Of a stretch of 64,000 nt of DNA, positions 1,343 to 58,979 are shown piece by piece. The notes beneath the pieces were generated by a model. That model had not been told where the DNA came from. It saw only the letters and a program-made list of their open reading frames with translations, and did no database searches. This DNA comes from an uncultured Phycisphaerales bacterium (GTDB lineage Bacteria; Planctomycetota; Phycisphaerae; Tepidisphaerales; Tepidisphaeraceae), in the NCBI GenBank assembly GCA_963758525.1, contig CAVWVQ010000003.1, positions 1,600,001 through 1,664,000 of the forward strand, read 5' to 3'. The stretch's first letter is position 1. Each line of letters starts with the position of its first letter. Position numbers and translations under genes: made by a program.

Positions 1343-4300
1343 ATGGCTACCGACCCCCGCTTCCTGGCCGACTCCGGCCGTGAAGTCTTCACCGGAAACG
1401 AACTGCTCATCAAGGGCGCGCTGGAAGTCGAAGGCGGCGTGCATCTTCTGACCGGCTATCCGGGCTCGCCGGTCGCGGGATTCTTCGACGTCATGGGCGA
1501 CATCAAAGATCTCCTCAACTCCCACGGCGTCCGCGCGTTTCAGGCCAACAACGAAGCATTGGGGGCCGCGGCCGTGAACGGATCGCAGATGATGCCCTGC
1601 CGGGCGATCGCGACGATGAAAAATGTCGGCGTTCACGTCGCGGCCGACGCGCTGGCACTGGCTAATCTTGCCGGTGCACATCCGCAGGGCGGCGCGATCA
1701 TCATCATGGGAGAAGATCCCTGGTGTGACAGCACGCAGGTTCCCGCGGACAGCCGATTCATCTGCGAGCACTTGCGGATGCCGGTTGTCGAGGCCGGCGG
1801 GCCGCAGGAATTGAAGGATTGGATCAATCTCGCCTTCAAGCTCAGCCAGGCCGCGCGGCTCTACATCGGATACATCGTCACCACCGCGCAGGCCGATGGC
1901 GGCGGCACCGTTCTGTGCCGCCCGAACCAGTTTCCCGACCTCAACACCATCCACCGTCAGGCGCTGGAAACGCAGGCAATCGATCTCAATCGCGTGCTGC
2001 TCCCGCCGCGCACCTGGCGGGAAGAATTGCGGATTCCCGAGCGATTTGAGGCGACGATGAAAGCCGCCCGCGAGCTGGGCGTCAATCGCATCGAATGGCA
2101 TCGGGATGCTCCCAGCGGCGACCGCGCGCCGCTCGGTTTCATCGCGACCGGGATGGGCGCGGCGTATCTCAAGCATGTGCTGGCGGACCTCGGTCTGGAC
2201 GGCGTTTTCCCGATCCTCCGAATGGGAATGAGCTATCCGGCAGACGTGAAGCTTGTCGCGGAGCTTTCCGAACGATGCACTCAAATGATCGTCGTCGAGG
2301 AGCGCCGCAGCTTCCTCGAAAAGAACATCCGCGACACGCTCTTTCGCGTCTTCCCCGCCGAGCGCGCGGGAGAGATCGTCACGCGCATCTACGGCAAGGC
2401 GTTTCCCCACGGACTGCCCGGCATTCCGGATTCGCGCGGGCTCAATCCTTCCGTCCTCTCGCAGGTTCTCATTCCCCTCATCAAGGCGACCGAACAGATT
2501 CCCGCGGAGCAGCGCAACGGCCGGCTCACTGCCGTGATGGACCGCCTGCGAAAGGCGAGCAAGCCGAAGCTGCAGGTCATTTCCGACAAAATCGTTCCGC
2601 GCACCGCCACCTTCTGCCCGGGTTGCCCGCATCGCGACAGCTCGGCAACGCTGCTGGAACTCCGCCAGAACTTTGCCGACCCGAAATACATGAAGGAGCA
2701 TCACGGCTCCGGCCCGGTTGACCTGGTCGCGCATGGTGACACCGGCTGCTACACCATGCTCATGTTCGCCCCCACCGAACAGCTCATGCACAACTACTCG
2801 GGCATGGGGCTCGGCGGCGGCACCGGAAGCGGAATCGATCCGTTCATCACCAACAAGCAGATCGTCTTCATGGGCGATGGCACGTTCTTCCACTCGGGAC
2901 AGATAGCCATCTCCAACTCCATCAAGGTGAACCAGAACATCACCTACATCATCCTGGAAAACAAAACGACCGCGATGACCGGCCATCAGGAACACGCCGG
3001 CACCGAACTCGATGTCGTCGGCAACCGCTCCTATATCCAGGACATCGAAACCATCGTGCGCGGCATGGCCGGAACCAGCCCGCTCACTGTCGAGCGGCTC
3101 TCCCCCGCCAATCGCTCGCGCTACCGCGCGGTGCTGGAGCACACGATCCTTCGCGACGGCGTGAAGGTCGTTATCGCCGACAAGGAATGCGGCATTACGC
3201 ATCACCGCAAGGTCCTCCAGAAAGAGCGCCAAACGATCAAGAAGCATGGCTACCTCCCGAAGAAGACGCACATGAACGTCACGACGGAGGTGTGCGAAAA
3301 CTGCCTCGAATGCACCAAGCAGACCGCCTGCCCGGGCCTGACGATTGCCGACACCGACTACGGCAAGAAGATCGACACCGATCTCACGTGGTGCGTGAAC
3401 GACGGCGCCTGCGAGCGCGTGACCGCGAGCAACGAGGTCGGTCTGAGTGTCAAGCCGTGCCCGAGCTTCGAGCAGGTGACGATCGTCCGTCAGCGCCGCC
3501 GCCGGTATACGCTGCCGCACATGGGGCTGGACAAGCTTCCCGAGCCGCCGCGCACGCATGAGATGCTTAAGCCCGGCGGCGTGTGGCGCTGTCACATGGC
3601 CGGCGTTGGTGGAATGGGCATCGGCGTGATCAACGCCATCCTCGTGCGCGCCGGTCACAAGCAGGGCTACCGCGTCGTCTTCGCCGACAAAAAGGGCCTG
3701 GCCATCCGCAACGGCGGCGTCTATTCGCAGATCACGTTTGTGAATGACGGGCCGGAGGGGCAAGAGGGTTCAGAGTCCAGTGGCCAGTCGCCGCGACGTT
3801 CAGGGTTAACGCAGGGTTCAGGGTTCAGGGTTCAGGGTTCAGGAACAGCGAATGCGCCCGATACCGGCAGCGCTTCTCCTGCCTCCTGCTCTCCTGCTCT
3901 CCTCTCTCGCGATAGCGGCCCATCTTCCCTGAACCCTGAACCCCGACCCCTGAACCCTCTCTCGATCCCTGAACCCCGACCCCTGAACCCTCAATATCCG
4001 ACCACTGGCAACATCCCCTACGGCCGTGCGGACCTGCTGCTTGGCGTCGATATTCTCGAAGCCGCCCGCGCGATCGATCCGCGCGAGGAATTTCGCGTTG
4101 CTTCCACGGAGTACACCGCGGCCGTCCTCAACACTTATAAGCAGCCGACCGTCTACACGCTGCTGGGCAGGAATGATTTTGACCCCGATGCGCTGCGCGA
4201 AGAAATCTTCGAGCATTGCAAGCCGGACAGCTCCTTTGCCCGCAATCTGTCCGAACTCTGCGAACAGCGGCTCGGGAGCAAACTGTATGCGAATATTCTC

Positions 4301-6629: not shown

Positions 6630-8933
6630 ATGTTGCGAAATCGACGCTTCATATCCGCCGCGCATGATGCCTCTCGTTTTTTGATGGAAGGCTTGGAATC
6701 GCGCCAGTTGCTCTCGGCGACGCTGACGAGCTCTGGAACCTTAAACGTTCAGGGCACCGGCCATGCGGACTCGATCACGGTTGGATTGAATCCGCAGAAC
6801 ACCAGCATGCTCGACGTTTCGATGAATGGAAAAACGCGCTCGTTTGATGCCGCGGACGTTCAGAACATCAACGTGAATGCCGGCGGCGGGAAAGACAATG
6901 TGAGCTTGGGCTCCACATTGACAACTCCGGCGACGATTCTGGGCGGCGCGGGCAATGACACGCTGACCGCGGGCAGCGGCGACGACACGCTCAACGGCGG
7001 GACGGGAAACGACACCCTCATCGGCGGCTCCGGTCAGGATAACCTCGTCGGCGGCACCGGAAACGACACCATCGAATGCGGGCCCGGACAGTCGCAGGTC
7101 AACGGCGGCACTGGGAAAGACAGCGTCCAATTCACCCCCACCGCCGGCGTGGCGCTCGACACCCTGCCGCAGGCGGTTCAAACCGGACTCACCACTCTCG
7201 CACAAGGCGCGACAATTTCCGACGTTCAGGTTTTCCAGGACGATCATCAGACTTACTACGGCACTTCCGTCACGATCGACAGCCAGCAGACGCGCATCGT
7301 CGTCGATTCGTCGGGAAATCCGGTCGGCAACGCTCCGCCCGGCAGCGGTGGCGGTTCGCCCGGCGGGGGATCGGGCGGTCAGGGACAGGGGAGTCAGGGG
7401 AACGGACCCGCCGCGCCGGCCGGCGTCCTCGGACCTGTGATCAGCACGGATGCAACCGCCGACACAATCACCCTGACGGCCAGCAATCCATGGGGGCCGC
7501 CCAAGCAGACGACATTTAAAGTAACGTCCACGACCGCGATCACCGCCGACGGTAATACCGTCGCGCTCTCCGCGCTGACTGCAGGGACATTGGTTGCCGT
7601 GCAGACCAGCGGCGCCGATTCGACCACGGCCACTTCCATTACCGCGCTCGATCGACGGGTCGGCGGCGTCGTGACCGCGATCGACACGACTGCCGACACA
7701 ATCACAATCAAAGATCCCAGCGGAACATCGACGACCTACACGGTCAGCCCAACCGCGACGGTGACGCTCGATGGGACTGCCAGCACATTTTCAGCGATCA
7801 CCACCACTTTGCATGTGCAATTGAAGCTCGCGGCACTCGATGGCACTGTGACGAGCATCATCTCCGACCCGCAGGACAGCTCCGGCGGCGGACCCGGTGA
7901 CTCCGGCAACCCGGGCGGAAGCGCCGGCGATCCCACCAGCGGCGCAGGCAACCCAGGCGGAACATCAGGCAACCCCGGCGGCAATCCAACGCAACTCGGG
8001 CCGCACGGAACGGTCGTCAGCGTCGACACCGCCGCTGACACCATCACGCTGCAAGTCGGAACCGCAAGTCCAACCAGCTACACCCTTACTTCCACTGCTA
8101 CCGTAACTCTGGACGGCGCGGCAAGCACGCTCTCTGCCCTTGTGGCAGGCGACAACGCAGGCTTGCAACTCTCTTCGGATGGCACAACAGTCGCCGCTAT
8201 CCAGGCGAATTCGCCAGGCACTTCCGCCAACCCGGGCGGAAACACCGGCGATCCCACCGGCGGCTCAGGTAACCCCGGCGGAAGCTCCGGCAATCCCGGG
8301 GGCAACCCCACGCAACTCGGTCCGTACGGGACCGTCGTCAGCGTCGATACAACAGCCGATACCATCACCCTCCAATCCGGCGCAGGCAGTTCGACGACCT
8401 ACAGCCTCGCTTCCACGGCTACCGTGACTCTGGACGGCGCCGCCAGCACGCTGTCCGCGCTCGGTGCCGGCGACAACGCGGGACTTCAGCTCTCCTCTGA
8501 CGGCAAGACCGTGACCGCGATTCAAGCGAATTCGCCCAGCGCCTCGGGCGATCCCGGCACCCCGACCGGCAGCCCTCCCGCAGGCTCGGGCAACACGGGC
8601 GCTCCCACGGGCAACCCCCCTGCCGGCTCGGGCAACTCCGGCGGTCCCACCGGAGGTTCGGGAAATCCGGGCGGCAATCCCGCTCCTCTTGGCCCGCATG
8701 GAGCCATCGTGAGCGCGGACGCAACGACCGACACCATCACGCTTCAAGCCGGCACCGCAAGTCCGACAACCTACACCGTTGCGTCCACGGCCACGGTGAC
8801 TTTGGACGGCGCCGCCAGCAGTCTCTCCTCACTCGTGGCGGGCGACAACGCGGGGCTGAAGCTCTCATCGGACGGAGTGACGGTGATCGCGATCCAAGCC
8901 AACTCGCCAGCGACCAGCGGCATGCCAAGCTGA
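6630..8933 (+). CDS. Exported repeat protein: LESRQLLS motif, RTX-type Ca-binding repeats, repeated beta domains (DUF5666-like), G/P/N-rich linkers
   Basis: GGxGxDTL nonapeptides; repeated [15 protein letters not shown]…ATVTLDG… units. Confidence 0.8.
7975..8910 (+). repeat. Three intragenic domain repeats
   Basis: [17 protein letters not shown]…[12 protein letters not shown]…IQANSP occurs three times with high identity. Confidence 0.85.
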
Positions 8934-32832: not shown

Positions 32833-34003
32833 TTGGAAGGTTCGACGCTGACACAATCCCGCCGCCGTGCTTCTGCGCCGCGCCGGCTGGCGCAGCGGAA
32901 TTCTTTGCGGGTATCGGTCTGGTCAGGCTCGCGTTGGAAAAACATTATTGGCAAGTCGTATTCGCTAACGATATCGACCCAGACAAACAGGAGATTTATG
33001 AGCACAACTTCGATGACGGTCATTTTCACCTCGGTGATATCCATAAATTGAGCCCAGATGATATTCCCGATTGCGAGCTGTTCACCGCATCCTTCCCTTG
33101 TAATGACCTGTCGATCGCCGGGTCGTGGTCGGGGCTAAGTGGCAAGGAATCGTCAGCATTCTGGGGCTTGATCGATATCTTGAAGGCGTTGAAAGGTAGG
33201 CGCCCACCGCTCGTGATGCTCGAAAATGTGGTCGGGTTTCTGCAATCGGGGGGCGGCCAGGATTTTGAGACTGCCCTCTTGGCCCTCAATCAGGTGGGTT
33301 ACACCGTCGACGCGTTTATCTTGAACGCAGTTCATTGGGTTCCTCAAAGTCGGGCGCGACTGTTCGTCATCGCCAAGGCTGATGGCCTCTGTGAAAAACC
33401 TCTCCCCTTTGCGATGGAAACGGACGCGCGTCCCGATGCGCTGTTTACATTCATCAACACGCACCAAAATATTCGCTGGGATATCAGTGAGCTGCCCCGG
33501 CTTCCGAAGCCGCGCACGAGACTTCGGGATATCATCGAAAATTTGCCAGACGACGACCCACATTGGTGGAATGACCAGCGAGCGGCATATTTCTTCAGTC
33601 AGTTCAGCGAGCGCCACCTCATGGCGGTGCGCTTGATGCTCGGTCAGAAGACCTATCAGTACGCGACCGCATTTCGCCGCGTGCGATACGGCAAGAGCAT
33701 GGCAGAGCTGCGCACAGACGGGATCGCCGGATGCTTGCACACCCCCGGGGCGGGAGTGGGCGTCAGATTCTGTTCAAAGCGGGAAAGGGGAAATTCCAAG
33801 TGCGGTTACTGACGGCCAGGGAATGCGCACGCCTGCAAGGCGTTCCCGATGACTACGTGATTAAAGTGCCGCTCAACCAAGCGCTGTTTGGCTTTGGCGA
33901 TGCGGTGTGTGTTCCCGCTGTGCGATGGATTGCCAAGCACTATTTGACGCCCCTGGCTCTGGAAATTACTGCTGACCCTTTTCTATTTGCGGCCCCTCAT
34001 TGA
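32833..34003 (+). CDS. dcm: C5 DNA cytosine methyltransferase, apparent frameshifts near 32890 and 33745
   Basis: EFFAGIG, SFPCNDLS, ENVVG, PQSRARLF, RECARLQG, FGDAV; AAGGAG before TTG 32833. Confidence 0.88.
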
Positions 34004-34012
34004 GACCCACAA

Positions 34013-34969
34013 ATGTCTTTTGCGCAATACGAAAGCTCGTTCACCGAATGGCACGATGAGTACATGATGAAGGGCGGAGCCGACGTTCCTGCTCGCCTGC
34101 TGACACTCCTCGGCTTATTGGAGCGACTGCGGGAACTTCCCGTGCTTGACCTCGACCAGCATAAAGCCGACAGCGGGATGCAACTCATTGAGCACAACGC
34201 CTTCGTAGATCGCGCTCTGGCACGGTTCGCAGTGCAATCCCCGGTTCAGGAAAAGGGCCGGCGCTCAAACAATTTGCACGCATGGGCGAATTCCCTGTTC
34301 GCCTGGCTCACAGCCGCGGGCTTTCAGCAAAATGCGCCGAACGACGACCTTCTGCTTGGGGCACAAGCGGTCGCCGCAAAACGACTCGCTCTAATCAACG
34401 ATGACAAGCCGCTGATCGCCCGTTACAGCAAAGGAACCGCAGTCGCCGTTATTGCAGACATTCTCGACCAGGCTCAGGAAAAGAAGCGGGCGAAGGACGT
34501 TGCCGAGTACCTGGTCGGCGCGAAACTTGAGCTTCGGTTCGGCGACGGGGTGGTCCAGCCCAAGAACGTAAACACGCCGAGTCTCGGTCACCTGGCCGAT
34601 TTTCGCATTGGCAATACTGCGATTGAGGTGACCACAGTCGAGCGCGCTGACAAGTCTCATCTTGATCAGATCACCCGGATTCTGCAGAACACGGGCTTAC
34701 AAGTCTGGCTGCTCACGAGGATGAAGGATCGCGAGAAGTGGCAGCACGCAGTAGAAGCTCTGTTCGATGCTCAGGTTCTGCGCATTGTGGTGGCAGACAT
34801 AGAAACCTTCGTCGGCCAGAACGTGTCTGAGATTGGCAAGTTTCAAAGCGAGGACGTCGCGAAGGCTCTATCCGCGCTTTTCGAGCGTTACACAACACAC
34901 TGGCTTCCACCGATCGGCGCGGGGGGATTGCGAATTGTCAACATGGAAACGGGAGGTGCCGTGCGTTAG
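34013..34969 (+). CDS. DUF4928-like putative restriction endonuclease
   Basis: EYLVGAKLELRF, DFRIGNTAIEVT, DIETFVGQNVSE; 9 nt after dcm. Confidence 0.7.
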   Translation: MSFAQYESSFTEWHDEYMMKGGADVPARLLTLLGLLERLRELPVLDLDQHKADSGMQLIEHNAFVDRALARFAVQSPVQEKGRRSNNLHAWANSLFAWLTAAGFQQNAPNDDLLLGAQAVAAKRLALINDDKPLIARYSKGTAVAVIADILDQAQEKKRAKDVAEYLVGAKLELRFGDGVVQPKNVNTPSLGHLADFRIGNTAIEVTTVERADKSHLDQITRILQNTGLQVWLLTRMKDREKWQHAVEALFDAQVLRIVVADIETFVGQNVSEIGKFQSEDVAKALSALFERYTTHWLPPIGAGGLRIVNMETGGAVR

Positions 34970-35241
34970 ACAGGGCGTTACCGTCGATCTGGCGTCGCCT
35001 CTTCCTGCACCCATGCTAAGATGATCTCTCGCGCTGTAGCCGCATCAGTTTCGGTTGAGTTTGCGTGGTCATTATAGACCGTGACTTACTCTCGCGAGTC
35101 AGGCGGGAAACCACCGCTCCATTTCCAAGAAATCGGCTTTCAGATTCGCAAGCTGTTGCTGCTCGGCCATGGGCGCTCCTGGTATGGGGAACAAGAATCA
35201 TATTATCGTTAGAATCTGTTGCACCCCAATCCGGTACATCC

Positions 35242-35676
35242 ATGGCGGACACTTTTACCCAGGTGGAACGGTCGCGCATCATGGCGGCGATCAAATCACG
35301 TGATACGAAGCCGGAGCTTTTAGTTCGCAGACTGATTCACCGCCTCGGCTATCGCTACCGGTTGCATGATCGCTCGCTTCCTGGCACCCCCGATATCGTC
35401 CTTCCCCGCCTCCAAAAAATTGTCAACGTCCATGGATGCTTTTGGCACATGCATTCGTGTCAACGTCACCGAAAAGCACCGGCCACTCACCCGGATTATT
35501 GGATCGCTAAACGAACAGGAAATGCCGCGAGGGATCGGAAGAATCTGGCCGAACTGCGTCGTCGAGGCTGGGATGTCCTTACGATCTGGGAATGCAGAAC
35601 GAAGAATGCGGCGGAACTATCAAAACTCCTCGTTAAGTTCCTTGCGATGAAACGGGTAAAGACAGAGGGACCTTGA
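35242..35676 (+). CDS. vsr: Very short patch repair endonuclease
   Basis: RSRIMAAIKSRDTKPE, LPGTPDIV, VHGCFWH, N..RD, IWEC. Confidence 0.93.
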   Translation: MADTFTQVERSRIMAAIKSRDTKPELLVRRLIHRLGYRYRLHDRSLPGTPDIVLPRLQKIVNVHGCFWHMHSCQRHRKAPATHPDYWIAKRTGNAARDRKNLAELRRRGWDVLTIWECRTKNAAELSKLLVKFLAMKRVKTEGP

Positions 35677-36025: not shown

Positions 36026-37459
36026 TTATGTCGCCGGGGGCGCATCCGACACGACATCGGGAGCCGGAACTGGCGCGGGTGGCGGCGGCGCGGTTTCGGA
36101 TAAGGGAACTACCGCGGCCGCGTCGCTGGGGCGGTTGGTGGTGAGTTCGCCGAAGTCTTCGTCGGTTTCTTCAACGTATACGTCGTCGAGTTCCGTAGCG
36201 TCCACCTCGGCGCGCATCAGGGTGTAAATGATCGTGTTGGCGGAGAAATAGAAGCTGAGCACGAAGGCGGCCAGCATGGCGATGACGAGATAGATCCAGA
36301 AGGAGATGATGCCGGCGGCGAGGGCGTCGGCTCCTTTGAGGGAGTCGTAGGCGGGAGGATAGGCGAGGGAGCGGAGATCGGGGGAGGGCCAGATGGCGGG
36401 GAAGTAGGTGCCGGGCTGGCCCTTGAGCCACCAGGCGGCGAAGAGGTGGGCCAGCTTGAGCATGACGAAGACGAACCAGTGGGCAAAGGCGTAGCAGAGT
36501 GCGCCGTAGATGAGTGCGACGGCACTGTAAAAGATCATCCGCCAGGGGCGGGCGAACACGTAGCTGAAGCTTCGGCTGATGGCGTCGAAGCTGTCGGAGC
36601 CTTCGACGGCGATGGTCGGATACATGAGGTTGAAGCCGGCGAGAGTGCCGGTGGCGACGAGGGCCATGACGAAGCCGGCGATGAGCGCGAGGAAGAAGAA
36701 GCAGGCGGCGACGACGGGCCCGATGTAGGGGATGTAGAAGAGCAGGGCGCCGAAGGCGACGGCGACGCCGGCGACGAGAATGATGATGATTGGGATCAGC
36801 GGGGCGAAGATGAAGCTGAGGATTTTGCTGGTGGAGAAGCTGACGGCCTGGCGGAGAGAGATTTTTTCATCGCGGGCGACGTGGACCGCGGCGATGCGTG
36901 AGATGGCTCCGCCGAAGACGGCCCAGACAATCAGGAAGATGGCGAAAAAGAAGATGCAGTAGACGAGATGGAATCGGAGGAGCCAGCTGGGGCCGATGAA
37001 GAGGAAGTTGGTCAGGCCGTGGGCGACGACGCCCCAGTCGGTGTAGGAGGCGTTGATGATGGCAGAGGCCTGGCGGACTTCGTAGGAGAAGAAGAGGGTG
37101 GAGATGCCAACTTTGGGGCCGAGTGCGCCGCCCTGGGCGCTGGCCCTGGCGAGTTCGAGGGCGCGGGTCATGTCGCCGTACAGCGCCTGTTCTGGCAGCG
37201 GGAGATTGCTGAAATCACTGCGGGCGGCGTGGAGCCAGCGGAGTTCTTCGTACTGCTGAATATCAAAGGCGTTGGGCAGCGACGCGCTGGGCCAGACGGC
37301 GTCGAGAATCCGCCCGCCGGCATAGAGGGAAAAGATCAGCAGCAATCCGAGGACGAGCTTGGAGGGGTGAATGGCGATGCGGAACGCGCGGAAAATATGC
37401 GTAAAGGGGAAAGTCTCACGCCAGTTGATGGCTCGGATCGCCTGCGATTCGTCCGCCAT
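36026..37459 (-). CDS. Multi-pass membrane protein of unknown function
   Basis: 477-aa ORF with many TM segments and strong codon bias. Confidence 0.8.
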   Translation of the reverse strand: MADESQAIRAINWRETFPFTHIFRAFRIAIHPSKLVLGLLLIFSLYAGGRILDAVWPSASLPNAFDIQQYEELRWLHAARSDFSNLPLPEQALYGDMTRALELARASAQGGALGPKVGISTLFFSYEVRQASAIINASYTDWGVVAHGLTNFLFIGPSWLLRFHLVYCIFFFAIFLIVWAVFGGAISRIAAVHVARDEKISLRQAVSFSTSKILSFIFAPLIPIIIILVAGVAVAFGALLFYIPYIGPVVAACFFFLALIAGFVMALVATGTLAGFNLMYPTIAVEGSDSFDAISRSFSYVFARPWRMIFYSAVALIYGALCYAFAHWFVFVMLKLAHLFAAWWLKGQPGTYFPAIWPSPDLRSLAYPPAYDSLKGADALAAGIISFWIYLVIAMLAAFVLSFYFSANTIIYTLMRAEVDATELDDVYVEETDEDFGELTTNRPSDAAAVVPLSETAPPPPAPVPAPDVVSDAPPAT

Positions 37460-37620
37460 ATTGCGGAAGCTCCTTTCCCTTGATGGCCCGCGGGACCGCC
37501 GGATTTGAACGGGTCGTCCGCCTGTGCGCGGGGATTATAGTCTGGGGGGATGCGGGATGCGAGGAGGCGGAGGGCACCCGCCGCGGCGGGTAAACTGCGG
37601 CACGGAGGCACGAGGGGGAC

Positions 37621-37681
37621 AAATCCGAATGACGAAACCCGAATCCTCGAATCAAATCCGAATGACGAAGCCCGAATGACG
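37621..37681. repeat. CGAATGA-type heptamer array
   Basis: aaatccgaatgacgaaacccgaatcctcgaatcaaatccgaatgacg; relatives at 58117-58287, 58941-58979 and about 62477. Confidence 0.8.
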
Positions 37682-37779
37682 GAGCGGGAGGCGCGATCGC
37701 GCTTCACTGTGCGTTTTGTCTTCGTTCGCTTCGTGCCGAGGGTTTGCCGACGAGAGGAGGGGGCGCCGGGAGGCGGAGA

Positions 37780-37869
37780 TTGCAAATTCGAAATTTCAAA
37801 TTTCAAATTTCAAATTTTAAATCTCAAATTTCAGATCTCAGACTTCAGACCTCAAATCTCAGATTGAAA
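37780..37869. repeat. TTTCAAA/TCTCAGA heptamer array
   Basis: About 12 degenerate 7-nt units; AT-rich. Confidence 0.9.
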
Positions 37870-37877
37870 GGTGGGAA

Positions 37878-38066
37878 TCACGATGCTTCGTCTGGCTGGC
37901 CTTCGGGTGCTTCTCCATCCCCGTCTTTCTCCACTGGAATCTGATATTTTCCGTCGAGCCAGCGGCCGAGATCGATCAGTTTGCAGCGCTCGCTGCAGAA
38001 GGGATAGGGACCGCGCGCGTTGGGATCGGGGGCGGGAACGGGTTTTTTGCAGATGGGGCAGTGCAT
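37878..38066 (-). CDS. yacG: DNA gyrase inhibitor YacG
   Basis: CPICKK…[21 protein letters not shown]. Confidence 0.92.
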
Positions 38067-38086
38067 TTCGGATGTCTGGCGGATGC

Positions 38087-38160
38087 GATTTCAAATTTGA
38101 AATCTGAAATTTTTCTCAAAATGCAAAATCTGAAATTTCTCAAAAGTGCAAATCTGAGAC
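38087..38160. repeat. TTTGAAA/TCTGAAA heptamer array, inverted relative to 37780-37869
   Basis: tttgaaatctgaaa…tctgaaa…tctgaga. Confidence 0.8.
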
Positions 38161-38185
38161 ACTGCGAGGCGCTTCGGCTCCAAGG

Positions 38186-38605
38186 CTATCGCTTTCTCTT
38201 GGAGGATGAACTCTTGGCCTGGGGTTTTGGCGCTGATGGCTCGGACTTAGGGGCTTCGCTTTTTGGGGATTCGGATTTAGCGGGGGCGGACTCGGAGGCC
38301 GCAGGTTTGGCTTCCGTTGGCTTGGAGTCGGAGGACTTGGCATCCGACGGCTTTGCGTCGCCGGATTTGGCTTCCGCGGGTTTGGGGGCGGAATCGGCTT
38401 TGGCGGCGTCTTTGTACGATTCGGAACGATAGTCCGTGATGTAAAAGCCGCTGCCTTTGAAGATGATTCCTGCGCCGGTGCCGATGAGGCGCTTGAGCGC
38501 GTTTTTGCCGCACTGGGGGCATTTGCGGAGCGGGCCGGCCATGATCGATTGGAATTTCTCGAACGCGTGGCCGCAATTGGAACATTTGTAGTCGTAGGTG
38601 GGCAT
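38186..38605 (-). CDS. FmdB-family zinc ribbon protein
   Basis: MPTYDYKCSNC…CPQC…FKGSGFYITDY; low-complexity K/S/P/A tail. Confidence 0.9.
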   Translation of the reverse strand: MPTYDYKCSNCGHAFEKFQSIMAGPLRKCPQCGKNALKRLIGTGAGIIFKGSGFYITDYRSESYKDAAKADSAPKPAEAKSGDAKPSDAKSSDSKPTEAKPAASESAPAKSESPKSEAPKSEPSAPKPQAKSSSSKRKR

Positions 38606-38619
38606 TGGATTAGGAGAAT

Positions 38620-38724
38620 AAGGGACAAAGGGACCAAGGGACTAAGGCACAAAGGGGGAGCGCATCGAAGTTGACGGAGCAGAATTTCACTTTGTCCCTC
38701 GGTCCCTTCGTCCCTTTGTCCCTT
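38620..38724. repeat. Inverted octamer arrays (AGGGACNA)n…(TNGTCCCT)n
   Basis: Four units on each arm. Confidence 0.88.
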
Positions 38725-38725
38725 C

Positions 38726-39274
38726 CTACTCCACCGACTTGCTCACGGCCACCTGGGCGGGGCGCAAAGTCCTGTCGTGGAGGCTGTAGCCCTTGTTGAA
38801 AAGCTGCACGACGGTGGGGACTTTGTATGTGGAATCCTGCTGCATGATCGCTTCGTGCCGGGAGGGATCGAAGGGGGTGCCAGGAGCGGGAGCGATTTCC
38901 TGCACCTGCTGCTGCTTGAGCACGGAGAGCCATTGGTCGTGGACGATTTGCATCCCTTTGAGGATGGTTTTGGCGTCTGCCTTCCCGGGATCGACGGCCA
39001 GGGCGCGCTCGAAATTGTCGATGACCGGCAGAAGGCTTTTGATCAGACTGCTGTTGGCGTATTGGAGGCGCTGATCCATCTCGATCTGGCTGCGCTTCTG
39101 GGCATTCTTGAACTCGGCGGTGGCGCGGGCGAGCCGCTCGAAAAGCGAGTCGCGCTCCGCCTTGAGCTTCTGGTACTCGTCGCCGGCATCGGCACCCGGG
39201 GCGGCGTTTTCTTCCGGTGCGGGGCCTGTGTCAAAATTCTGCTGGTTTTCGTCGTCGATTGGAATGGTTGCCAT
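38726..39274 (-). CDS. grpE: Nucleotide exchange factor GrpE
   Basis: AEFKNAQKR, LLPVIDNFERAL, FDPSRHEAI, GYSLHDRTLRPAQVAV. Confidence 0.95.
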   Translation of the reverse strand: MATIPIDDENQQNFDTGPAPEENAAPGADAGDEYQKLKAERDSLFERLARATAEFKNAQKRSQIEMDQRLQYANSSLIKSLLPVIDNFERALAVDPGKADAKTILKGMQIVHDQWLSVLKQQQVQEIAPAPGTPFDPSRHEAIMQQDSTYKVPTVVQLFNKGYSLHDRTLRPAQVAVSKSVE

Positions 39275-39298
39275 GGGAACTTTCCGGGCCTGATTCAA

Positions 39299-40429
39299 TC
39301 AGTCGCCCTTGATGGCTTGTTTGAGTTTGTCCACGAAACCTTTTCGCTGCGGCATGGTGGCGCCGTCTTCGAGGGCCGAGAATTCACGGAGAAGCGTTTT
39401 CTGCTTTTCGGTGAGCTTGCGGGGGATTTCGACGACGATCTGCACGAGCTCGTCGCCGGTTTTGGAAGAGCGCAGGTCGGGCAGGCCCTTCCCCTTGAGC
39501 TTGAAGACTTCGCCGTGCTGCGAGCCGGGGGGAATTTCCAGATCGGTGACGGCTCTGAGCGTGGGGACTTCGATTTTGCCGCCCAGCGCGGCAAGAGTGA
39601 ACGAAATGGGGATCTGGCAGACCAGGTCGTTGCCGTGGCGCGTGAAAATCGGATGAGGGCGCAAGGCGATGTAGCAATGCAGATCGCCCGGCTGCGCGCC
39701 GTTTTCACCGGCTTCCCCTTCGCCAACCACGCGCACGGCCTGACCCTCGTGGACGCCGGCGGGGATTTTGACGGTGATGACTTTGCGTTTGAGCTGGCGT
39801 CCGGTGCCGCCGCAGGAAGGGCACACGTCGCGGATGACCGTGCCGCGTCCGCGGCAGTTGGGGCAGGCGGTGACCATGCGGAACATTCCGCCGAAGCCCT
39901 GTTGGGCGACGCGTCCCTGTCCGCCGCATTGCACGCAGACGACCGGCGAGCTTCCCGCCTTGGCGCCGCTTCCCTTGCAAGTGTCGCACACATCCTGTTT
40001 TTCAACTTCGATGGTCTTCTCGCACCCCGCGCCGACTTCGGAGAGCGTGAGCTGGACCTGCATTTCCAGGTCGAACCCGCGTTGAGCCCGCGCCTGCCCG
40101 CGCTGGCCTCCGCGACCGCCTAACGCGCCGCCGAAAATATCGTCGAACATCGAGAAGATGTCGCCGACGTCCATGTGCGAAAAGTCGTGCTGCCCGCCGA
40201 CGCCCTGGTGGCCGAACTGATCATACCGCCGGCGTTTTTCGTCGTCGGAGAGAACCTCGTACGCCTCGGCGCATTCTTTAAACAGAGCTTCGGCCTCGGC
40301 TTTATTGCCGTCGGCGCGGTCGGGGTGATACTTCATCGCCAGCCGGCGATAAGAGCGCTTGATCTCCTCCCCGGAGGCGGTCCGGGTGACGCCAAGCACT
40401 TCGTAATAATCGCGTTTTGTCGTGGCCAC
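39299..40429 (-). CDS. dnaJ: Chaperone DnaJ
   Basis: J domain with HPD, G/F region, four CxxCxGxG motifs. Confidence 0.97.
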   Translation of the reverse strand: MATTKRDYYEVLGVTRTASGEEIKRSYRRLAMKYHPDRADGNKAEAEALFKECAEAYEVLSDDEKRRRYDQFGHQGVGGQHDFSHMDVGDIFSMFDDIFGGALGGRGGQRGQARAQRGFDLEMQVQLTLSEVGAGCEKTIEVEKQDVCDTCKGSGAKAGSSPVVCVQCGGQGRVAQQGFGGMFRMVTACPNCRGRGTVIRDVCPSCGGTGRQLKRKVITVKIPAGVHEGQAVRVVGEGEAGENGAQPGDLHCYIALRPHPIFTRHGNDLVCQIPISFTLAALGGKIEVPTLRAVTDLEIPPGSQHGEVFKLKGKGLPDLRSSKTGDELVQIVVEIPRKLTEKQKTLLREFSALEDGATMPQRKGFVDKLKQAIKGD

Positions 40430-40445
40430 GTTCGTTCCTGAAAAA

Positions 40446-40490
40446 GCGAAAGACACAAAGATAGCGACCGGCTATCTTCGTGTCTTCGCG
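40446..40490. repeat. Hairpin between groEL and dnaJ (AAGACAC/GTGTCTT type)
   Basis: gcgaaagacacaaagatagc-gaccg-gctatcttcgtgtcttcgc. Confidence 0.7.
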
Positions 40491-40606
40491 CGGTCAGGAT
40501 TAAATTATAGGGCGACTGCTTCTCTCAGCGCTGACCGGATCCCCGGGGGATCACACGGCGAACGTGCTCGCCGGCTGCACGAACAACAACGAATGCCAGA
40601 CCCGCA

Positions 40607-42232
40607 TCAGCTCACCGCGCCGGCGATGGCGGGGACGTCGTCGCCTTCCTTCAGTTCCGTCACGAGGACTTCGGTTGTCAGCGCCAGAGCGCTGACGCTG
40701 GCGGCGTTGAGCAGCGCGGTGCGGGCCACCTTGGCCGGGTCGAGAATGCCCGCTTTGAGCATGTCGCAGAATTCGCCGGTGCCGGCGTTATAGCCCCAGT
40801 TGGGGTTCTTGTTGGACAGGATTTCGTCCACAATCACTTCGCCGTCATCACCGGCGTTGTCCGCGATCTGGCGGGCCGGAGCACGCAGCGCTTCGATGAC
40901 AATCTCAAATCCGATTTTCTCGTCACCGCGGGCTTTGGACTTCCCATTTTCGACGACTTCGATGGCGCGGAGGAATGCGACACCGCCGCCGGGGATGATT
41001 CCCTCTTCGGCAGCGGCCCGGGTGGCGTGGAGCGCGTCATCGATCAAATCCTTGCGCTCCTTCATTTCCATTTCAGTTGCGGCGCCGGCCCGGATGACGG
41101 CAACGCCGCCGGTGAGCTTGGCGAGGCGTTCCTGGAGCTTTTCCTTGTCGTAATCGCTGGTGGTCTTGTCGATCTGCGAACGAATCTGGTCGGCGCGGCC
41201 CTCGATCTCCTTGCGCTTGCCGGCGCCTTCGACGATCAGCGTGTTGTCCTTGTCGACGGTGATGCGCTTGGCTTGACCGAGGTCTTCGAGCTCGACGTTT
41301 TCGAGCTTCAGACCGATGTCTTCGCTGATGAACTTTGCGCCGGTGACGACTGCGAGGTCGGCCATGATCGCCTTGCGGCGGTCGCCGAATCCCGGGGCCT
41401 TGACGGCGCAGATATTCAGCACGCCGCGCAGCTTGTTGACGACCAGGGCGGCGAGCGCCTCGGACTCAACGTCTTCGGCGATGATCAGCAGCGGCTTGCT
41501 GGAAGTCACGATCTTGTTGAGCAGCGGGAGCAGCTCGGCGAGATTGGAGATCTTCTTTTCGTGAAGCAGGATGTAAGCGTCTTCCAACACCGCCTCGAGC
41601 GTGGTCGGGTTGGTGAGGAAATAAGGGGACATGTATCCCTTGTCGAACTGCATTCCCTCGGTGTATTCGAGCGTGGAGTCGGTGCTCTTGCCTTCGTCGA
41701 CGGTGATGACGCCTTCCTTGCCGACTTTCTCCATCGCGTCGGCCATGAGGTCGCCGATCTTCTCGTCGCCGTTGGCGCTGATGGTGGCGACGCGCTTGTA
41801 GTCCTCGCGTCCCTTGACCTTCTTGGAGAGCGCGGTGATCGACTCGGCGGCCAGCTCAGCGGCTTTGAGAATGCCGCGCTGGATAACGACAGGGTTTGCC
41901 CCGCCGGCCGCGACATATTTGAGACCATTGCTATAGATCGCCTCGGCAAGCACGACCGCGGTGGTGGTGCCATCGCCGGCGACATCGCCGGTCTTGCTGG
42001 CGACCATGTTCACCAGCTTGGCGCCCATGTTTTCGAAGGGTTGCGGCAGCTCGATCTCTTTGGACACGGTGACGCCGTCCTTGGTGATCCGCGGGCTGCC
42101 GAAGGATTTCTGCAACACCACGTTGCGACCGCGCGGCCCCAGGGTCGCTTTGACGGCCCGAGCCAACTGTGAAAGGCCGCCGGCAATTTCCGCCCGTGCG
42201 CCCGCTTCAAACATCATTTGTTTCGCTGCCAT
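40607..42232 (-). CDS. groEL: Chaperonin GroEL, copy without a GGM tail
   Basis: [35 protein letters not shown]. Confidence 0.98.
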
Positions 42233-42247
42233 GTCTATAACTCCGAG

Positions 42248-42326
42248 TCAGGGTACAGGGTTCAGGGTGTCATGGTTCAGGAGGCCAGTCTTTTACTGAA
42301 CCCTGAACTCTGACACCCTGAACCCT
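42248..42326. repeat. Inverted GGGTTCA/TGAACCC heptamer arrays, same family as 3764-3992
   Basis: cagggtacagggttcagggtgtcatggttcagg…ctgaaccctgaactctgacaccctgaaccct. Confidence 0.88.
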
Positions 42327-42370
42327 CTTTGTGCTTTTTGCGGAATGCGTCGTTCGCGCAGATCCGTGAA

Positions 42371-42658
42371 TTACTCCAGAACGCCCAGAATGTCCGTCTC
42401 GCGAAGGATGACGAACTTTTCGGTGTTCACTTCGATGTCGGTGCCGGCGTACTTGCCGTAGTAGACGGTGTCGCCGGCGCGGACGCCGATTTCCATCGGC
42501 TTGCCGTGGTCGTCGAGCTTTCCGGGGCCGACGGAAATGACTTTGCCCTTGGTGGGCTTTTCCTTGGCGCTGTCGGGAAGCACGATCCCGCTGGCGGTTT
42601 TCGTTTCGGCTTCCGACTGCTTCACAATAACGCGATCTGCTAGAGGTCGAAGTTTCAT
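42371..42658 (-). CDS. groES: Co-chaperonin GroES
   Basis: MKLRPLADRVIV, TASGIVLPD, VGPGK. Confidence 0.97.
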   Translation of the reverse strand: MKLRPLADRVIVKQSEAETKTASGIVLPDSAKEKPTKGKVISVGPGKLDDHGKPMEIGVRAGDTVYYGKYAGTDIEVNTEKFVILRETDILGVLE

Positions 42659-42697: not shown

Positions 42698-43066
42698 TCA
42701 TGCGGCCAATACTGGGCCAGCCGCGACCAGCTTCTTTCGCTTCGGGTCCACCGATGCGTTGAAACCTTCCAAAGTTCGAGCACCGAGGAGCGATTGATCG
42801 CCGGGCTCACCGAACACCACTTCATCTACCGTGAAAAACTTCTCAACATGTATCACCACAAATCCGACGCTCCTGGTGATCTCCTGTCCATTTGCCATGA
42901 CAAACGTGACATCCTTCTTCTCGCGTTGAACTCCTATACGCTCAAGCGATTTTGCGGAAAGCCAGGTGTAGTCAGTGCCGGTATCGACAAGGAGCTTCTC
43001 GACCCGCACCGACCGATGACGATCTCCTACGTTCTCGATCTTGCATCCCACTCGAAAAGCTCCCAC
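42698..43066 (-). CDS. Clan AA (retropepsin-like) aspartic protease
   Basis: LLVDTGTDYT, MANG, LLGARTLE, VDP. Confidence 0.85.
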   Translation of the reverse strand: MGAFRVGCKIENVGDRHRSVRVEKLLVDTGTDYTWLSAKSLERIGVQREKKDVTFVMANGQEITRSVGFVVIHVEKFFTVDEVVFGEPGDQSLLGARTLEGFNASVDPKRKKLVAAGPVLAA

Positions 43067-43082
43067 GACTTACGTTCCCTCT

Positions 43083-44822
<1,740 letters not shown>

Positions 44823-46570: not shown

Positions 46571-46589
46571 CGGAGCAGTCCCAGCGGAG

Positions 46590-46623
46590 GGGGAAAGAGG
46601 GAAAGAAGGGAAGAGGGAAAGAG
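46590..46623. repeat. Purine-only octamer array (GGGAAAGA)n
   Basis: About four degenerate units between convergent genes. Confidence 0.65.
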
Positions 46624-56752: not shown

Positions 56753-58078
56753 ATGCGCGTCTTCATGCTCGGCTGGGAGTTCCCTCCCTTTATCAGCGGC
56801 GGTCTGGGGACTGCCTGCTATGGCCTCACCAAGGCCATGAGCGCGCTGGGAACCGACGTGATGTTCGTCCTGCCTCGGCCGGTCTCCACCCCCTTTTCAA
56901 CCCATGTGCGGCTGGTGAGCCCGCAGCGCGGCTCGGCGCTGGCATCACCGGACACGGAGATGCGGCTCGATGAGTTTGAACGCGTCACCTTTCGGACCGT
57001 CAATGCGGATATCACGGATCCTTATCAATCAGCCGCCAGCCGCGCTCAGCAACGGTCGCGGACGAGCAACTTCGGTGCGACCAACCCGGCGGAAGCCGGC
57101 GCGGGCAAATCGGGCTTCCTTGGGCCGAATAAGCCGGCGGGGTATGCCGGTGATCTGTTTGCCGAGGTGCAGCGTTATGCGACCCTGGCGGCGGAGATCG
57201 CCCGCCAGGAATCCTTCGACGTGATTCACGCGCACGATTGGATGACTTTTCCCGCGGGTCTTGCGGTTTCGGGCATCAAGGGCGTGCCGTTGGTCGTGCA
57301 TGTCCACTCCACGGAATTTGACCGCAGCGGCGCGCACGTCGATCAGCGCATTTACGATATCGAACGCCGCGGCATGCACGGCGCGATCAAAGTCATTGCC
57401 GTCAGCTATCTGACGAAAAATCAGATCACCCATCAATTCGGAATCGATCCGGGCAAGGTCGAAGTGGTCTACAACGCGATCGAAGCCAACGGGGAAGGAT
57501 TCGATCAGGAGAAGTTCAGCATCACCAAGGATGAGAAGATCGTTCTGTTCCTCGGCCGCATCACCATGCAGAAAGGCCCCGAATATTTTCTCGCCGCGGC
57601 AAAAAAGGTGCTTGAGGTGATGGACAACGTCAAGTTCGTCATGGCCGGCAGCGGCGACATGATCCGCCGCACCATCGAGATGGCCGCCGAGCTGGGGATC
57701 GGCCACAAGGTTCTCTTCACCGGCTTCCTTCGTGGGGGCGATGTCGAAAAAGTCTTCAGGATGGCGGATCTGTACGTGATGCCGTCGGTCAGCGAGCCGT
57801 TTGGCATCGCTCCGCTGGAGGCAATGAGCCACGACGTTCCCGTCATCATCTCAAAGCAGTCGGGCGTCAGCGAGGTGCTCACCCACGCGCTGAAGGTCGA
57901 TTTCTGGGACGTCACCGAAATGGCGAATAAGATCATCGCCGTCCTCAAGCACCCGCCCCTGGCCGCCACGCTCCGCCAGCACGGGAGCTTCGAAGTGCGG
58001 CGGCTGAGCTGGAACGACGCCGCCCGGGCGTGCGTGCAGGTGTATGAGCAGGCGCTGACGCTGACGGGCAGGCGCTGA
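56753..58078 (+). CDS. GT4-family glycosyltransferase
   Basis: GWEFPP..SGGLG, HAHDW, LGRITMQKG, EPFGIAPLEAM. Confidence 0.93.
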   Translation: MRVFMLGWEFPPFISGGLGTACYGLTKAMSALGTDVMFVLPRPVSTPFSTHVRLVSPQRGSALASPDTEMRLDEFERVTFRTVNADITDPYQSAASRAQQRSRTSNFGATNPAEAGAGKSGFLGPNKPAGYAGDLFAEVQRYATLAAEIARQESFDVIHAHDWMTFPAGLAVSGIKGVPLVVHVHSTEFDRSGAHVDQRIYDIERRGMHGAIKVIAVSYLTKNQITHQFGIDPGKVEVVYNAIEANGEGFDQEKFSITKDEKIVLFLGRITMQKGPEYFLAAAKKVLEVMDNVKFVMAGSGDMIRRTIEMAAELGIGHKVLFTGFLRGGDVEKVFRMADLYVMPSVSEPFGIAPLEAMSHDVPVIISKQSGVSEVLTHALKVDFWDVTEMANKIIAVLKHPPLAATLRQHGSFEVRRLSWNDAARACVQVYEQALTLTGRR

Positions 58079-58103
58079 CGCTGACGGGCAGGCGCTGACG
58101 CTG
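58048..58103. repeat. 20-bp tandem repeat (2.8 copies) across the GT4 stop codon
   Basis: (gcaggcgctgacgctgacgg)n. Confidence 0.9.
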
Positions 58104-58116
58104 CTGTTTACAGCGG

Positions 58117-58287
58117 GAATTCGATGACGAAGTCCCAATCCTCGAATCAAAGAATCAAATCCGAATGTCGAAGTCCGAAGCTCGAAGCAAAATGCGGGAT
58201 GTCCCCACACCCTCTCTCCCGTTTCGAATTTCTTCATTCGAGTTTCGAGCTTGATTCGAGGATTCGAGCTTCGACATTCGAACTTCC
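58117..58287. repeat. Inverted CGAA-heptamer arrays
   Basis: …cctcgaatcaaa…tccgaatgtcgaagtccgaagctcgaa / ttcgagcttgattcgaggattcgagcttcgacattcgaac. Confidence 0.85.
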
Positions 58288-58324
58288 CGCGATTACCCGG
58301 ACATGGCTACCCGCCCCATCGGCG

Positions 58325-58940: not shown

Positions 58941-58979
58941 GAATTTGATTCAGGGATTCTGGTTTCGTCATTCGGGCTT
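58941..58979. repeat. CGAATGA-family half element in reverse orientation
   Basis: Reverse complement resembles 37621-37660. Confidence 0.7.

Follow-up and report, generated by a model that had tools for sequence, protein, structure and literature searches.

The question raised by this locus is why most of the spacers in one bacterial chaperone operon are filled with short tandem repeats whose units are unrelated from spacer to spacer while their architecture is often the same. The operon lies in a 64,000-nucleotide stretch of DNA from an uncultured Phycisphaerales bacterium (the window; C3:1600001-1664000 of the source genome, G000, which has 6.47 Mb and 61% GC). On the minus strand the cluster reads groEL - aspartic protease - groES - groEL - dnaJ - grpE - fmdB - yacG (assigned by Pfam, and FmdB by NCBIfam), in agreement with the gene names given in an earlier note on this DNA. 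That note had proposed a single spreading mechanism keyed on structure, which left the repeats either as scars of inserted cassettes or as mRNA stability and processing elements that tune subunit ratios. The reading that we consider probable, though well short of assured, is that the blocks belong to hairpin families copied throughout the genome, likely as gene-less derivatives of cassettes of the intervening sequence (IVS) type, which recurrently occupy stop-start junctions and one of which has been domesticated.

Repeats were found in five of the six spacers of the range that the earlier note covered, or in five of eight if the two spacers above groES are included, so most spacers are indeed filled. 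All blocks sit between protein genes and none within an rRNA gene. Three of them are clear hairpins (RNA fold z-scores of -6.3, -5.2 and -7.9). Between groES and groEL, GGGTTCA heptamers form the expected array and inverted array in a gene-less hairpin on the minus strand (42248..42328; 5' arm 42296-42328, 3' arm 42248-42284; z -6.3). The octamers between grpE and fmdB do the same: the gene-less AAGGGACN hairpin (38620..38725, minus strand; z -7.9) begins directly 3' of the grpE stop codon. The third hairpin, between groEL and dnaJ, is discussed separately below. The layout of array, spacer and inverted array that had been ascribed to most blocks is thus seen in three of five, the others being single arms or a self-complementary unit.

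The arrays around yacG (37878..38066, minus strand; PF03884) are of this second kind. A decayed TTTCARA array of the 3'-arm type precedes the yacG start (38088..38157, minus strand; a single arm, z -1.4), and a TTTGARA array of the 5'-arm type with 12 units follows its stop (37779..37865, minus strand; z -4.3), folding solely via its self-complementary unit. Heptamers are therefore present on both sides of yacG, as had been noted, but they do not form one paired hairpin, and the polarity analysis places this conserved operon gene between two outward-facing half elements. As the arms face outward by the arm-order rule of the families, which was read by eye for TTTGARA, yacG can be ruled out as cargo, and by the same rule the arrays would be parts of two separate decayed elements. 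Further downstream, the CGAATGA heptamers are present at 37621-37681, but as a single arm and not as a hairpin (z +0.75 for 37600-37745). This arm lies within an inverted pair of GGCACGRA octamer arms (37599-37615 and 37729-37740), and the whole appears to be a nested remnant on the plus strand (37599..37740); the same kind of nesting has parallels at C3:596830 and in relative L005. At the gathering score, Rfam gave no match for the blocks, only sub-threshold matches to microRNA and small nucleolar RNA families.

The arrays are not a peculiarity of this locus. Two families recur within the window, as the earlier note had seen (GGGTTCA at 3812-3991; CGAATGA at 58964, with a variant at 58120-58285), and a genome-wide census places all five operon families across the genome, at 67 (GGGTTCA), 35 (AAGGGACN), 21 (TTTGARA), 83 and 90 loci. 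Altogether the genome holds 314 7-mer and 333 8-mer arrays, where an order-3 Markov simulation of its non-coding DNA yields three of each, and 301 of the 314 and 292 of the 333 lie outside gene calls, which for this census were our own crude calls. Cyanobacterial short tandemly repeated repetitive (STRR) sequences are likewise intergenic tandem heptamers of unexplained origin; an STRR-like excess of intergenic tandem 7-mers is present here (314 arrays, 301 of them outside gene calls, versus 3 simulated), with units that differ from the cyanobacterial ones and with 8-mer families in addition. The operon is dense in arrays without being unique, since at least four array-bearing junctions, as here, occur in 44 of 5069 runs of eight. 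A chaperone-specific role is ruled out, given that the operon families are also found at rpsS-rplV, rplD-rplW and secY-map (gene names judged from translations).

The families share an arm-loop-arm design with an arm order fixed for each family. GGGTTCA comes first in 32 of 33 pairs and GGCACGAA in 29 of 29; the first-arm unit follows stops and its complement precedes starts (for GGGTTCA, 40 versus 7 and 24 versus 0). A variant word of 17 nt is found 84 times in identical form across the genome. Higher-order tandem amplification was also observed, at C3:925767-926563 (45-nt units, GAAGTCA family) and at C3:4092660-4093700 (~380-nt units, CGCGAAGA family), and at C3:3765000-3765530 GGGTTCA and TTGCAAA arrays lie between putative tRNA genes.

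What links these hairpins to gene-carrying cassettes is the sequence of their arms. The genome has eight matches to PF05635, the four-helix-bundle protein of 23S IVS elements, and four GxxExxY matches. We take PF05635 proteins to resemble the nucleic-acid-binding Avd, and GxxExxY proteins to have the PD-(D/E)XK fold (the Pfam name PDDEXK_3 itself comes from the profile match). A strict detector found arrays on both sides of four of the eight PF05635 genes and one of the four GxxExxY genes, versus 5 of 911 small genes, and by eye both arms are present at six of the eight PF05635 genes. Three operon families match cassette arms at 88-93% identity: the GGGTTCA 5' arm is identical at 30 of 33 positions to the 5' arm of a four-helix-bundle cassette at C3:3097241, the AAGGGACN hairpin at 27 of 29 to the 5' arm of a cassette at C3:4377228, and the CGAATGA arm at 53 of 60 to a cassette arm at C3:3373190.

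The same search bears on the idea that these are elements akin to repetitive extragenic palindromes (REP) and REPINs, whose movement would depend on a neighboring gene for a Y1 (RAYT) transposase or for a reverse transcriptase. The REPs and REPINs that go with RAYT transposases are non-autonomous multi-copy extragenic palindromes. The genome does encode suitable enzymes (23 Y1 transposase and six reverse-transcriptase matches), and palindromes that we label GTAG-type occupy the same junctions in some relatives. However, no array lies on either side of any of the 23 Y1 or the six reverse-transcriptase genes, a result that leaves room for action in trans, and the arms here, unlike those of REP/REPIN elements, are tandem 7-8-mers. 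We give this explanation very little credence.

A closer relation is suggested by the 23S IVS of Coxiella burnetii (helix 45), which combines heptamer repeats, a 28-bp stem, an S23p gene and cleavage by RNase III, according to the part of PMC4990558 that describes it. By that description the two share a long terminal stem (28 bp there, ~25-35 bp here), tandem heptamers, a PF05635 gene in the full form and a patchy presence; they differ in that the elements here lie at mRNA junctions, in hundreds of copies and many unit families, and are mostly gene-less. In the window the terminal stem is found in three of five blocks (z -5.2 to -7.9), while a PF05635 open reading frame (ORF) between the arms is found elsewhere in G000 and neither in the window blocks nor in 113 + 116 orthologous spacers. 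The blocks work like non-autonomous IVS-type cassettes outside rRNA, and are set apart from the IVS class proper by their location and by the missing cargo on site.

PF05635 is present in 59 of 61 family genomes (a tally that includes one unpublished genome, G004, which possibly also contributes one row to the pooled spacer counts; no conclusion depends on that genome by itself). Of the 253 matches, 90 from the higher ranks were inspected, one of which was G000 itself and was dropped; among the other 89 loci, an array is present at 82 and an inverted pair that matches at 62. Cassette gene and upstream neighbor point the same way in 65 of 67 cases, cassette gene and downstream neighbor in 73 of 78. 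When 41 of the relatives' cassette loci were mapped to G000 they fell on 20 junctions, of which six are at most 9 nt long, five are longer without arrays, eight carry arrays without a PF05635 gene and one holds a cassette with another unit. Arrays are thus present at 9 of these 20 junctions versus 318 of 3603 co-directional ones (p 2e-5, for junctions that are not a random draw). The same junctions are hence seen in three states across relatives: empty, with a gene-less hairpin, and with a gene cassette. At C3:1706499-1706726, for instance, a gene-less GGGTTCA hairpin in G000 corresponds to cassettes in nine relatives with nine different consensus heptamers; the neighboring genes look response-regulator-like and HDOD-like from their translations. 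In a tree of 90 cassette proteins, related units group loosely.

One cassette lies inside a gene. In dnaE2, which encodes the error-prone polymerase (C3:4375103-4378474), one open frame runs through an octamer-armed four-helix-bundle gene that is read in a second frame. The host frame is open through the cassette in G000 and in all eight relatives with this arrangement (L167, L175, L186, L189, L190, L191, L195 and L210; the dnaE2 identity was confirmed by NF004225 above cut-off for L189), and in a separate count in 7 of 7, versus 4 of 78 other cassettes. In the G000 gene, gene-less repeat inserts also lie in frame close to either end, and the frame changes at about 4378150. This suggests that the element in dnaE2 is tolerated by read-through and not spliced out.

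To see how the operon's own junctions behave in other genomes, we used 141 grpE loci and the window, with 116 further groES loci, counting distinct sequences from kin that are not independent of each other; the records of these genomes bear the names Tepidisphaerales, Tepidisphaeraceae or Phycisphaerales for the GrpE relatives. Arrays were found in 62 of 113 groES-groEL spacers, with 40 consensus units (some near variants of each other), and in 28 of 116 grpE-fmdB spacers, with 23 units, so the spacers are far from invariant. Elsewhere they are rarer (dnaJ-grpE 18/108, fmdB-yacG 2/81, after yacG 4/45), and shuffled spacers gave none. In each of the three nearest relatives, the grpE-fmdB filling differs from that of the window. 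On the GrpE tree, spacers of 2-13 nt alternate with filled ones among close relatives, the array state changing no fewer than 22 times over 118 rows, and the fillings that alternate are unrelated 7-mer, 8-mer and, as we name them, GTAG-type sequences. No grpE-fmdB spacer exceeds 243 nt, and 41 of 116 are at most 30 nt long.

These alternations speak against the possibility that an old cassette at each junction has been inherited vertically, its units drifting and its gene being lost in place with no ongoing mobility. Such a history would agree with the approximately unbiased (AU) test, which does not reject one clade for eight proteins at one junction (p 0.158), and with the dnaE2-nested cassettes, which are mostly one clade with related 8-mer units. 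It sits poorly with the exchange of unrelated fillings and near-empty spacers among close GrpE relatives, with the 84 exact genome copies of the 17-nt word, and with elements nested in the loops of other elements, and we regard it as decidedly unlikely. The turnover of units, the nesting of one family in another's loop and the shared orientation of cassette gene and neighbors are all directly apparent from the data, and fit the reading of the blocks as recurrently arriving hairpin copies.

If the hairpins were kept for their RNA structure, pairing on the transcribed strand should have left a trace. Across 102 G000 elements there are 143 G-U versus 151 A-C pairs, in three sets of relatives' spacers 82 versus 107, 100 versus 127 and 58 versus 66, and in 52 of the 102 elements it is the sense strand that gives the better fold. 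The 3' arm is also no nearer to its own 5' arm than to the arms of other copies (mean percentile 0.40-0.65, six families). Both a class-wide G-U bias of the sense strand and co-evolution of an element's own arms are therefore absent. The tuning of subunit ratios, proposed by the earlier note, finds no support as a general role: the transcribed strand lacks a G-U bias, arms do not co-evolve, and many relatives' spacers are nearly empty.

In a broader form of this idea, the hairpins would be kept because they stabilize mRNA or are processed by RNase III and so fix the ratio of chaperone subunits, any family being sufficient. Occupancy does depend strongly on the junction, from 62/113 at groES-groEL through 28/116 and 18/108 to 2/81 at fmdB-yacG; RNase III is encoded in the genome; selection for RNA pairing acts on the groEL-dnaJ hairpin; and groES is among the repeat-associated genes named in the relevant section on Xanthomonas in PMC4692102. 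Set against this are the balanced pair counts and strand preference given above, the 41 of 116 grpE-fmdB spacers of 30 nt or less, and the full cassette within dnaE2, where the host frame stays open and efficient cleavage would fit poorly. On balance this explanation seems to us unlikely.

The arm comparison also bears on a local origin, in which polymerase slippage makes the arrays and template switching the inverted arm without any dedicated spreading system. Slippage is proposed for the heptamer excess in passages of PMC4692102 and PMC4679880, and the unit number differs between copies. However, a 3' arm does not resemble its own 5' arm more than it does the arms of other copies, the genome is dominated by a small number of particular families whose polarity is fixed, and the arrays are concentrated around PF05635 genes, so that we find this origin highly improbable.

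The exception to the lack of selection is the hairpin between groEL and dnaJ (40446..40491, minus strand), with arms GAAGACAC...GTGTCTTC and a 17-pair stem at 40449-40487 (z -5.2). The earlier note rightly described a hairpin of AAGACAC here, but with ~1.5 units per arm it is no array. Unlike the other blocks, it is vertically conserved and selected for RNA pairing. It is kept in 43 of 68 groEL-dnaJ spacers, versus 0-2 spacers in other spacer classes. G-U pairs outnumber A-C by 54 to 9 in 46 spacers, inherited pairs being counted repeatedly, and in 39 sequences picked for possessing the motif covariation is 0.374 versus 0.234 when shuffled, a value that 0 of 500 shufflings reach (slid partners give 0.08-0.18). 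No Rfam family matches this covarying hairpin before dnaJ. Its arms resemble an 8-mer family and some relatives carry extra units, which makes it likely that it is a domesticated element of the 8-mer family.

The position of the hairpin relative to putative promoter elements points to a role at the start of a transcript. In 21 of 43 spacers a -10-like hexamer precedes the hairpin by no more than 45 nt (in 18 of these at -19 to -23), compared with 3 of 43 in a control window. In the window itself TATAAT at 40504..40509 on the minus strand, the predicted -10 box of a dnaJ promoter internal to the operon, sits ~22 nt before the hairpin, and a similar hexamer is found upstream of it in relatives; a two-hexamer promoter scan did not flag this site. 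We infer an internal dnaJ promoter whose transcript would carry the hairpin at its 5' end. An attenuator is the alternative: the hairpin matches a terminator-like pattern, but 13 such sites occur window-wide against 11.9 by chance, and the 12-nt tail after it has a mean of 4.5 T across 46 spacers. The controlling inverted repeat of chaperone expression (CIRCE) is a motif with a fixed 9-9-9 inverted repeat consensus. At three mismatches or fewer the window has no CIRCE match, and the spacing of the groEL-dnaJ inverted repeat varies from 5 to 91 nt, which together argue against an operator role.

How such elements might spread can be outlined as follows. The cassette protein may bind RNA or single-stranded DNA at the repeat unit of its own cassette and would help to copy the element into transcribed junctions, with catalysis supplied by a host recombination or repair enzyme or by the GxxExxY nuclease-fold protein. 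Elements would land at stop-start junctions and replace one another there; the gene would then be lost and the hairpin decay under little selection. One 8-mer-type hairpin, that of groEL-dnaJ, was likely fixed early and now forms an RNA structure that starts an internal dnaJ-grpE transcript.

Several results weigh against the derivation of the blocks from mobile cassettes. The earlier note had proposed a look in relatives for small cargo genes between the arms, and the operon's own spacers contain no PF05635 gene in any of the 113 groES-groEL and 116 grpE-fmdB sequences of the family, nor a GxxExxY gene in the relatives' spacers searched for it, nor any cargo gene after groES in the ~69 loci sampled outside the family, which stem from some of the other families. 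If 2% of elements carried a gene, zero cargo at these junctions would have a probability of 0.11, and if 5% did, of 0.004. Of 36 genomes, each with only 1-4 cassettes sampled, two have a groES-groEL unit that matches one of their own cassettes (mean after shuffling 1.2, p 0.36). Absent cargo and a chance-level unit match both count against a simple scar model; they suggest that gene-less hairpins are self-moving, or that the gene is purged quickly at these junctions. No cassette with the TTTGARA unit was found, no catalytic protein for the elements was identified in this analysis, and no target-site duplication, as expected of a miniature inverted-repeat transposable element (MITE), was seen by eye in eight groups of relatives, which are too far apart for certainty on this point. 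By our crude gene calls, arrays are no more frequent at co-directional junctions (318/3603, 8.8%) than at convergent (81/754, 10.7%) or divergent ones (93/752, 12.4%). Finally, a single clade for the eight intact cassette proteins at one junction was not rejected by the AU test, with which unit drift in place is compatible. Of the single structure-keyed mechanism, then, the shared architecture of unrelated units, the kinship to gene-carrying cassettes and the variation among relatives stand, whereas the cargo expected of cassette scars is missing at the operon's own junctions and its link to the hairpins is drawn from other junctions.

A more far-reaching proposal, which we put forward tentatively and incline to doubt, is that the hairpins form an undescribed, protein-guided mobile class. 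Each four-helix-bundle or GxxExxY protein would recognize its own 7-8-base unit and write elements into operon stop-start junctions without a transposase of its own; the families would compete for and overwrite junctions, nest in frame in genes such as dnaE2, and sometimes become domesticated as 5' RNA structures. If true, this would explain the long-noted heptamer excess of bacterial genomes. The findings bear on that excess, and on what the widely occurring PF05635 proteins do. One junction offers ~40 unrelated units in a constant architecture, with a built-in contrast between unselected hairpins and a domesticated one, and the matched arm-protein pairs of a single genome allow direct tests of mobility, of binding specificity and of cleavage by RNase III.

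Heptamer arrays have been described elsewhere. GGGAATC in Xanthomonas and GGGGAYT in Nostoc are read as G-quadruplexes in the portion of PMC4692102 concerned with them; like the present arrays they are intergenic, often inverted pairs and adjoin stop codons, and groES is among the associated genes. They differ in that there is one family per genome, and neither a cargo gene nor unit replacement is reported in that portion (PMC4692102). The TAACTGA repeats of Beggiatoaceae resemble the present arrays in that heptamers are repeated in one set orientation immediately ahead of start codons, but are described as direct repeats, and the words 'helix bundle', 'S23' and 'intervening' are absent from the text of PMC4679880. 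No description of PF05635 genes in repeat-armed cassettes at mRNA junctions was found in the literature within our search, which extended to neither subscription journals nor supplements.

The remaining features of the operon, all on the minus strand, are its genes and one further predicted promoter. The cluster begins with a groEL paralogue (43083..44780; PF00118) and a clan AA aspartic-protease-like gene (42698..43066; PF13975), which in relatives lies 5' of groES, 3' of it, or is absent. These are followed by groES (42371..42658; PF00166), groEL (40607..42232; PF00118), dnaJ (39299..40429; PF00226, PF00684, PF01556), grpE (38726..39274; PF01025) and the FmdB-family zinc-ribbon gene (38186..38605; TIGR02605). 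Beyond yacG, a predicted -10 box TATAAT (37534..37539), recognized by eye in most of 12 spacers, may serve the next gene (36026-37459), and the repeats at 37599-37865 would then separate the operon end from this predicted promoter.

The relatives' chaperone operons often carry inserted small two-gene modules in the groEL-groES and groEL-dnaJ spacers, after the hairpin and outside its loop (seen in L003, L005, L009, L010, L011, L014, L016, L017, L018 and L019). We take them to be toxin-antitoxin-like from their look; four ORFs from the groEL-dnaJ spacers gave no NCBIfam match. Elsewhere in the window, the GGGTTCA hairpin at 3812-3991 contains an inner octamer array, a GGGAAAGA array lies at 46588-46623, and a 20-mer triplet adjoins the CGAATGA-like hairpin (58048-58290). 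At 33216-35676 a frame that we presume, from its translation, to be DNA-methyltransferase-like ends early and is briefly continued at 33731-34003; the region also holds an ORF of 318 aa and a presumed Vsr-like ORF. Finally, a coding-like region at 7902-8650 consists in part of two 321-nt repeats with 21-nt sub-repeats inside.

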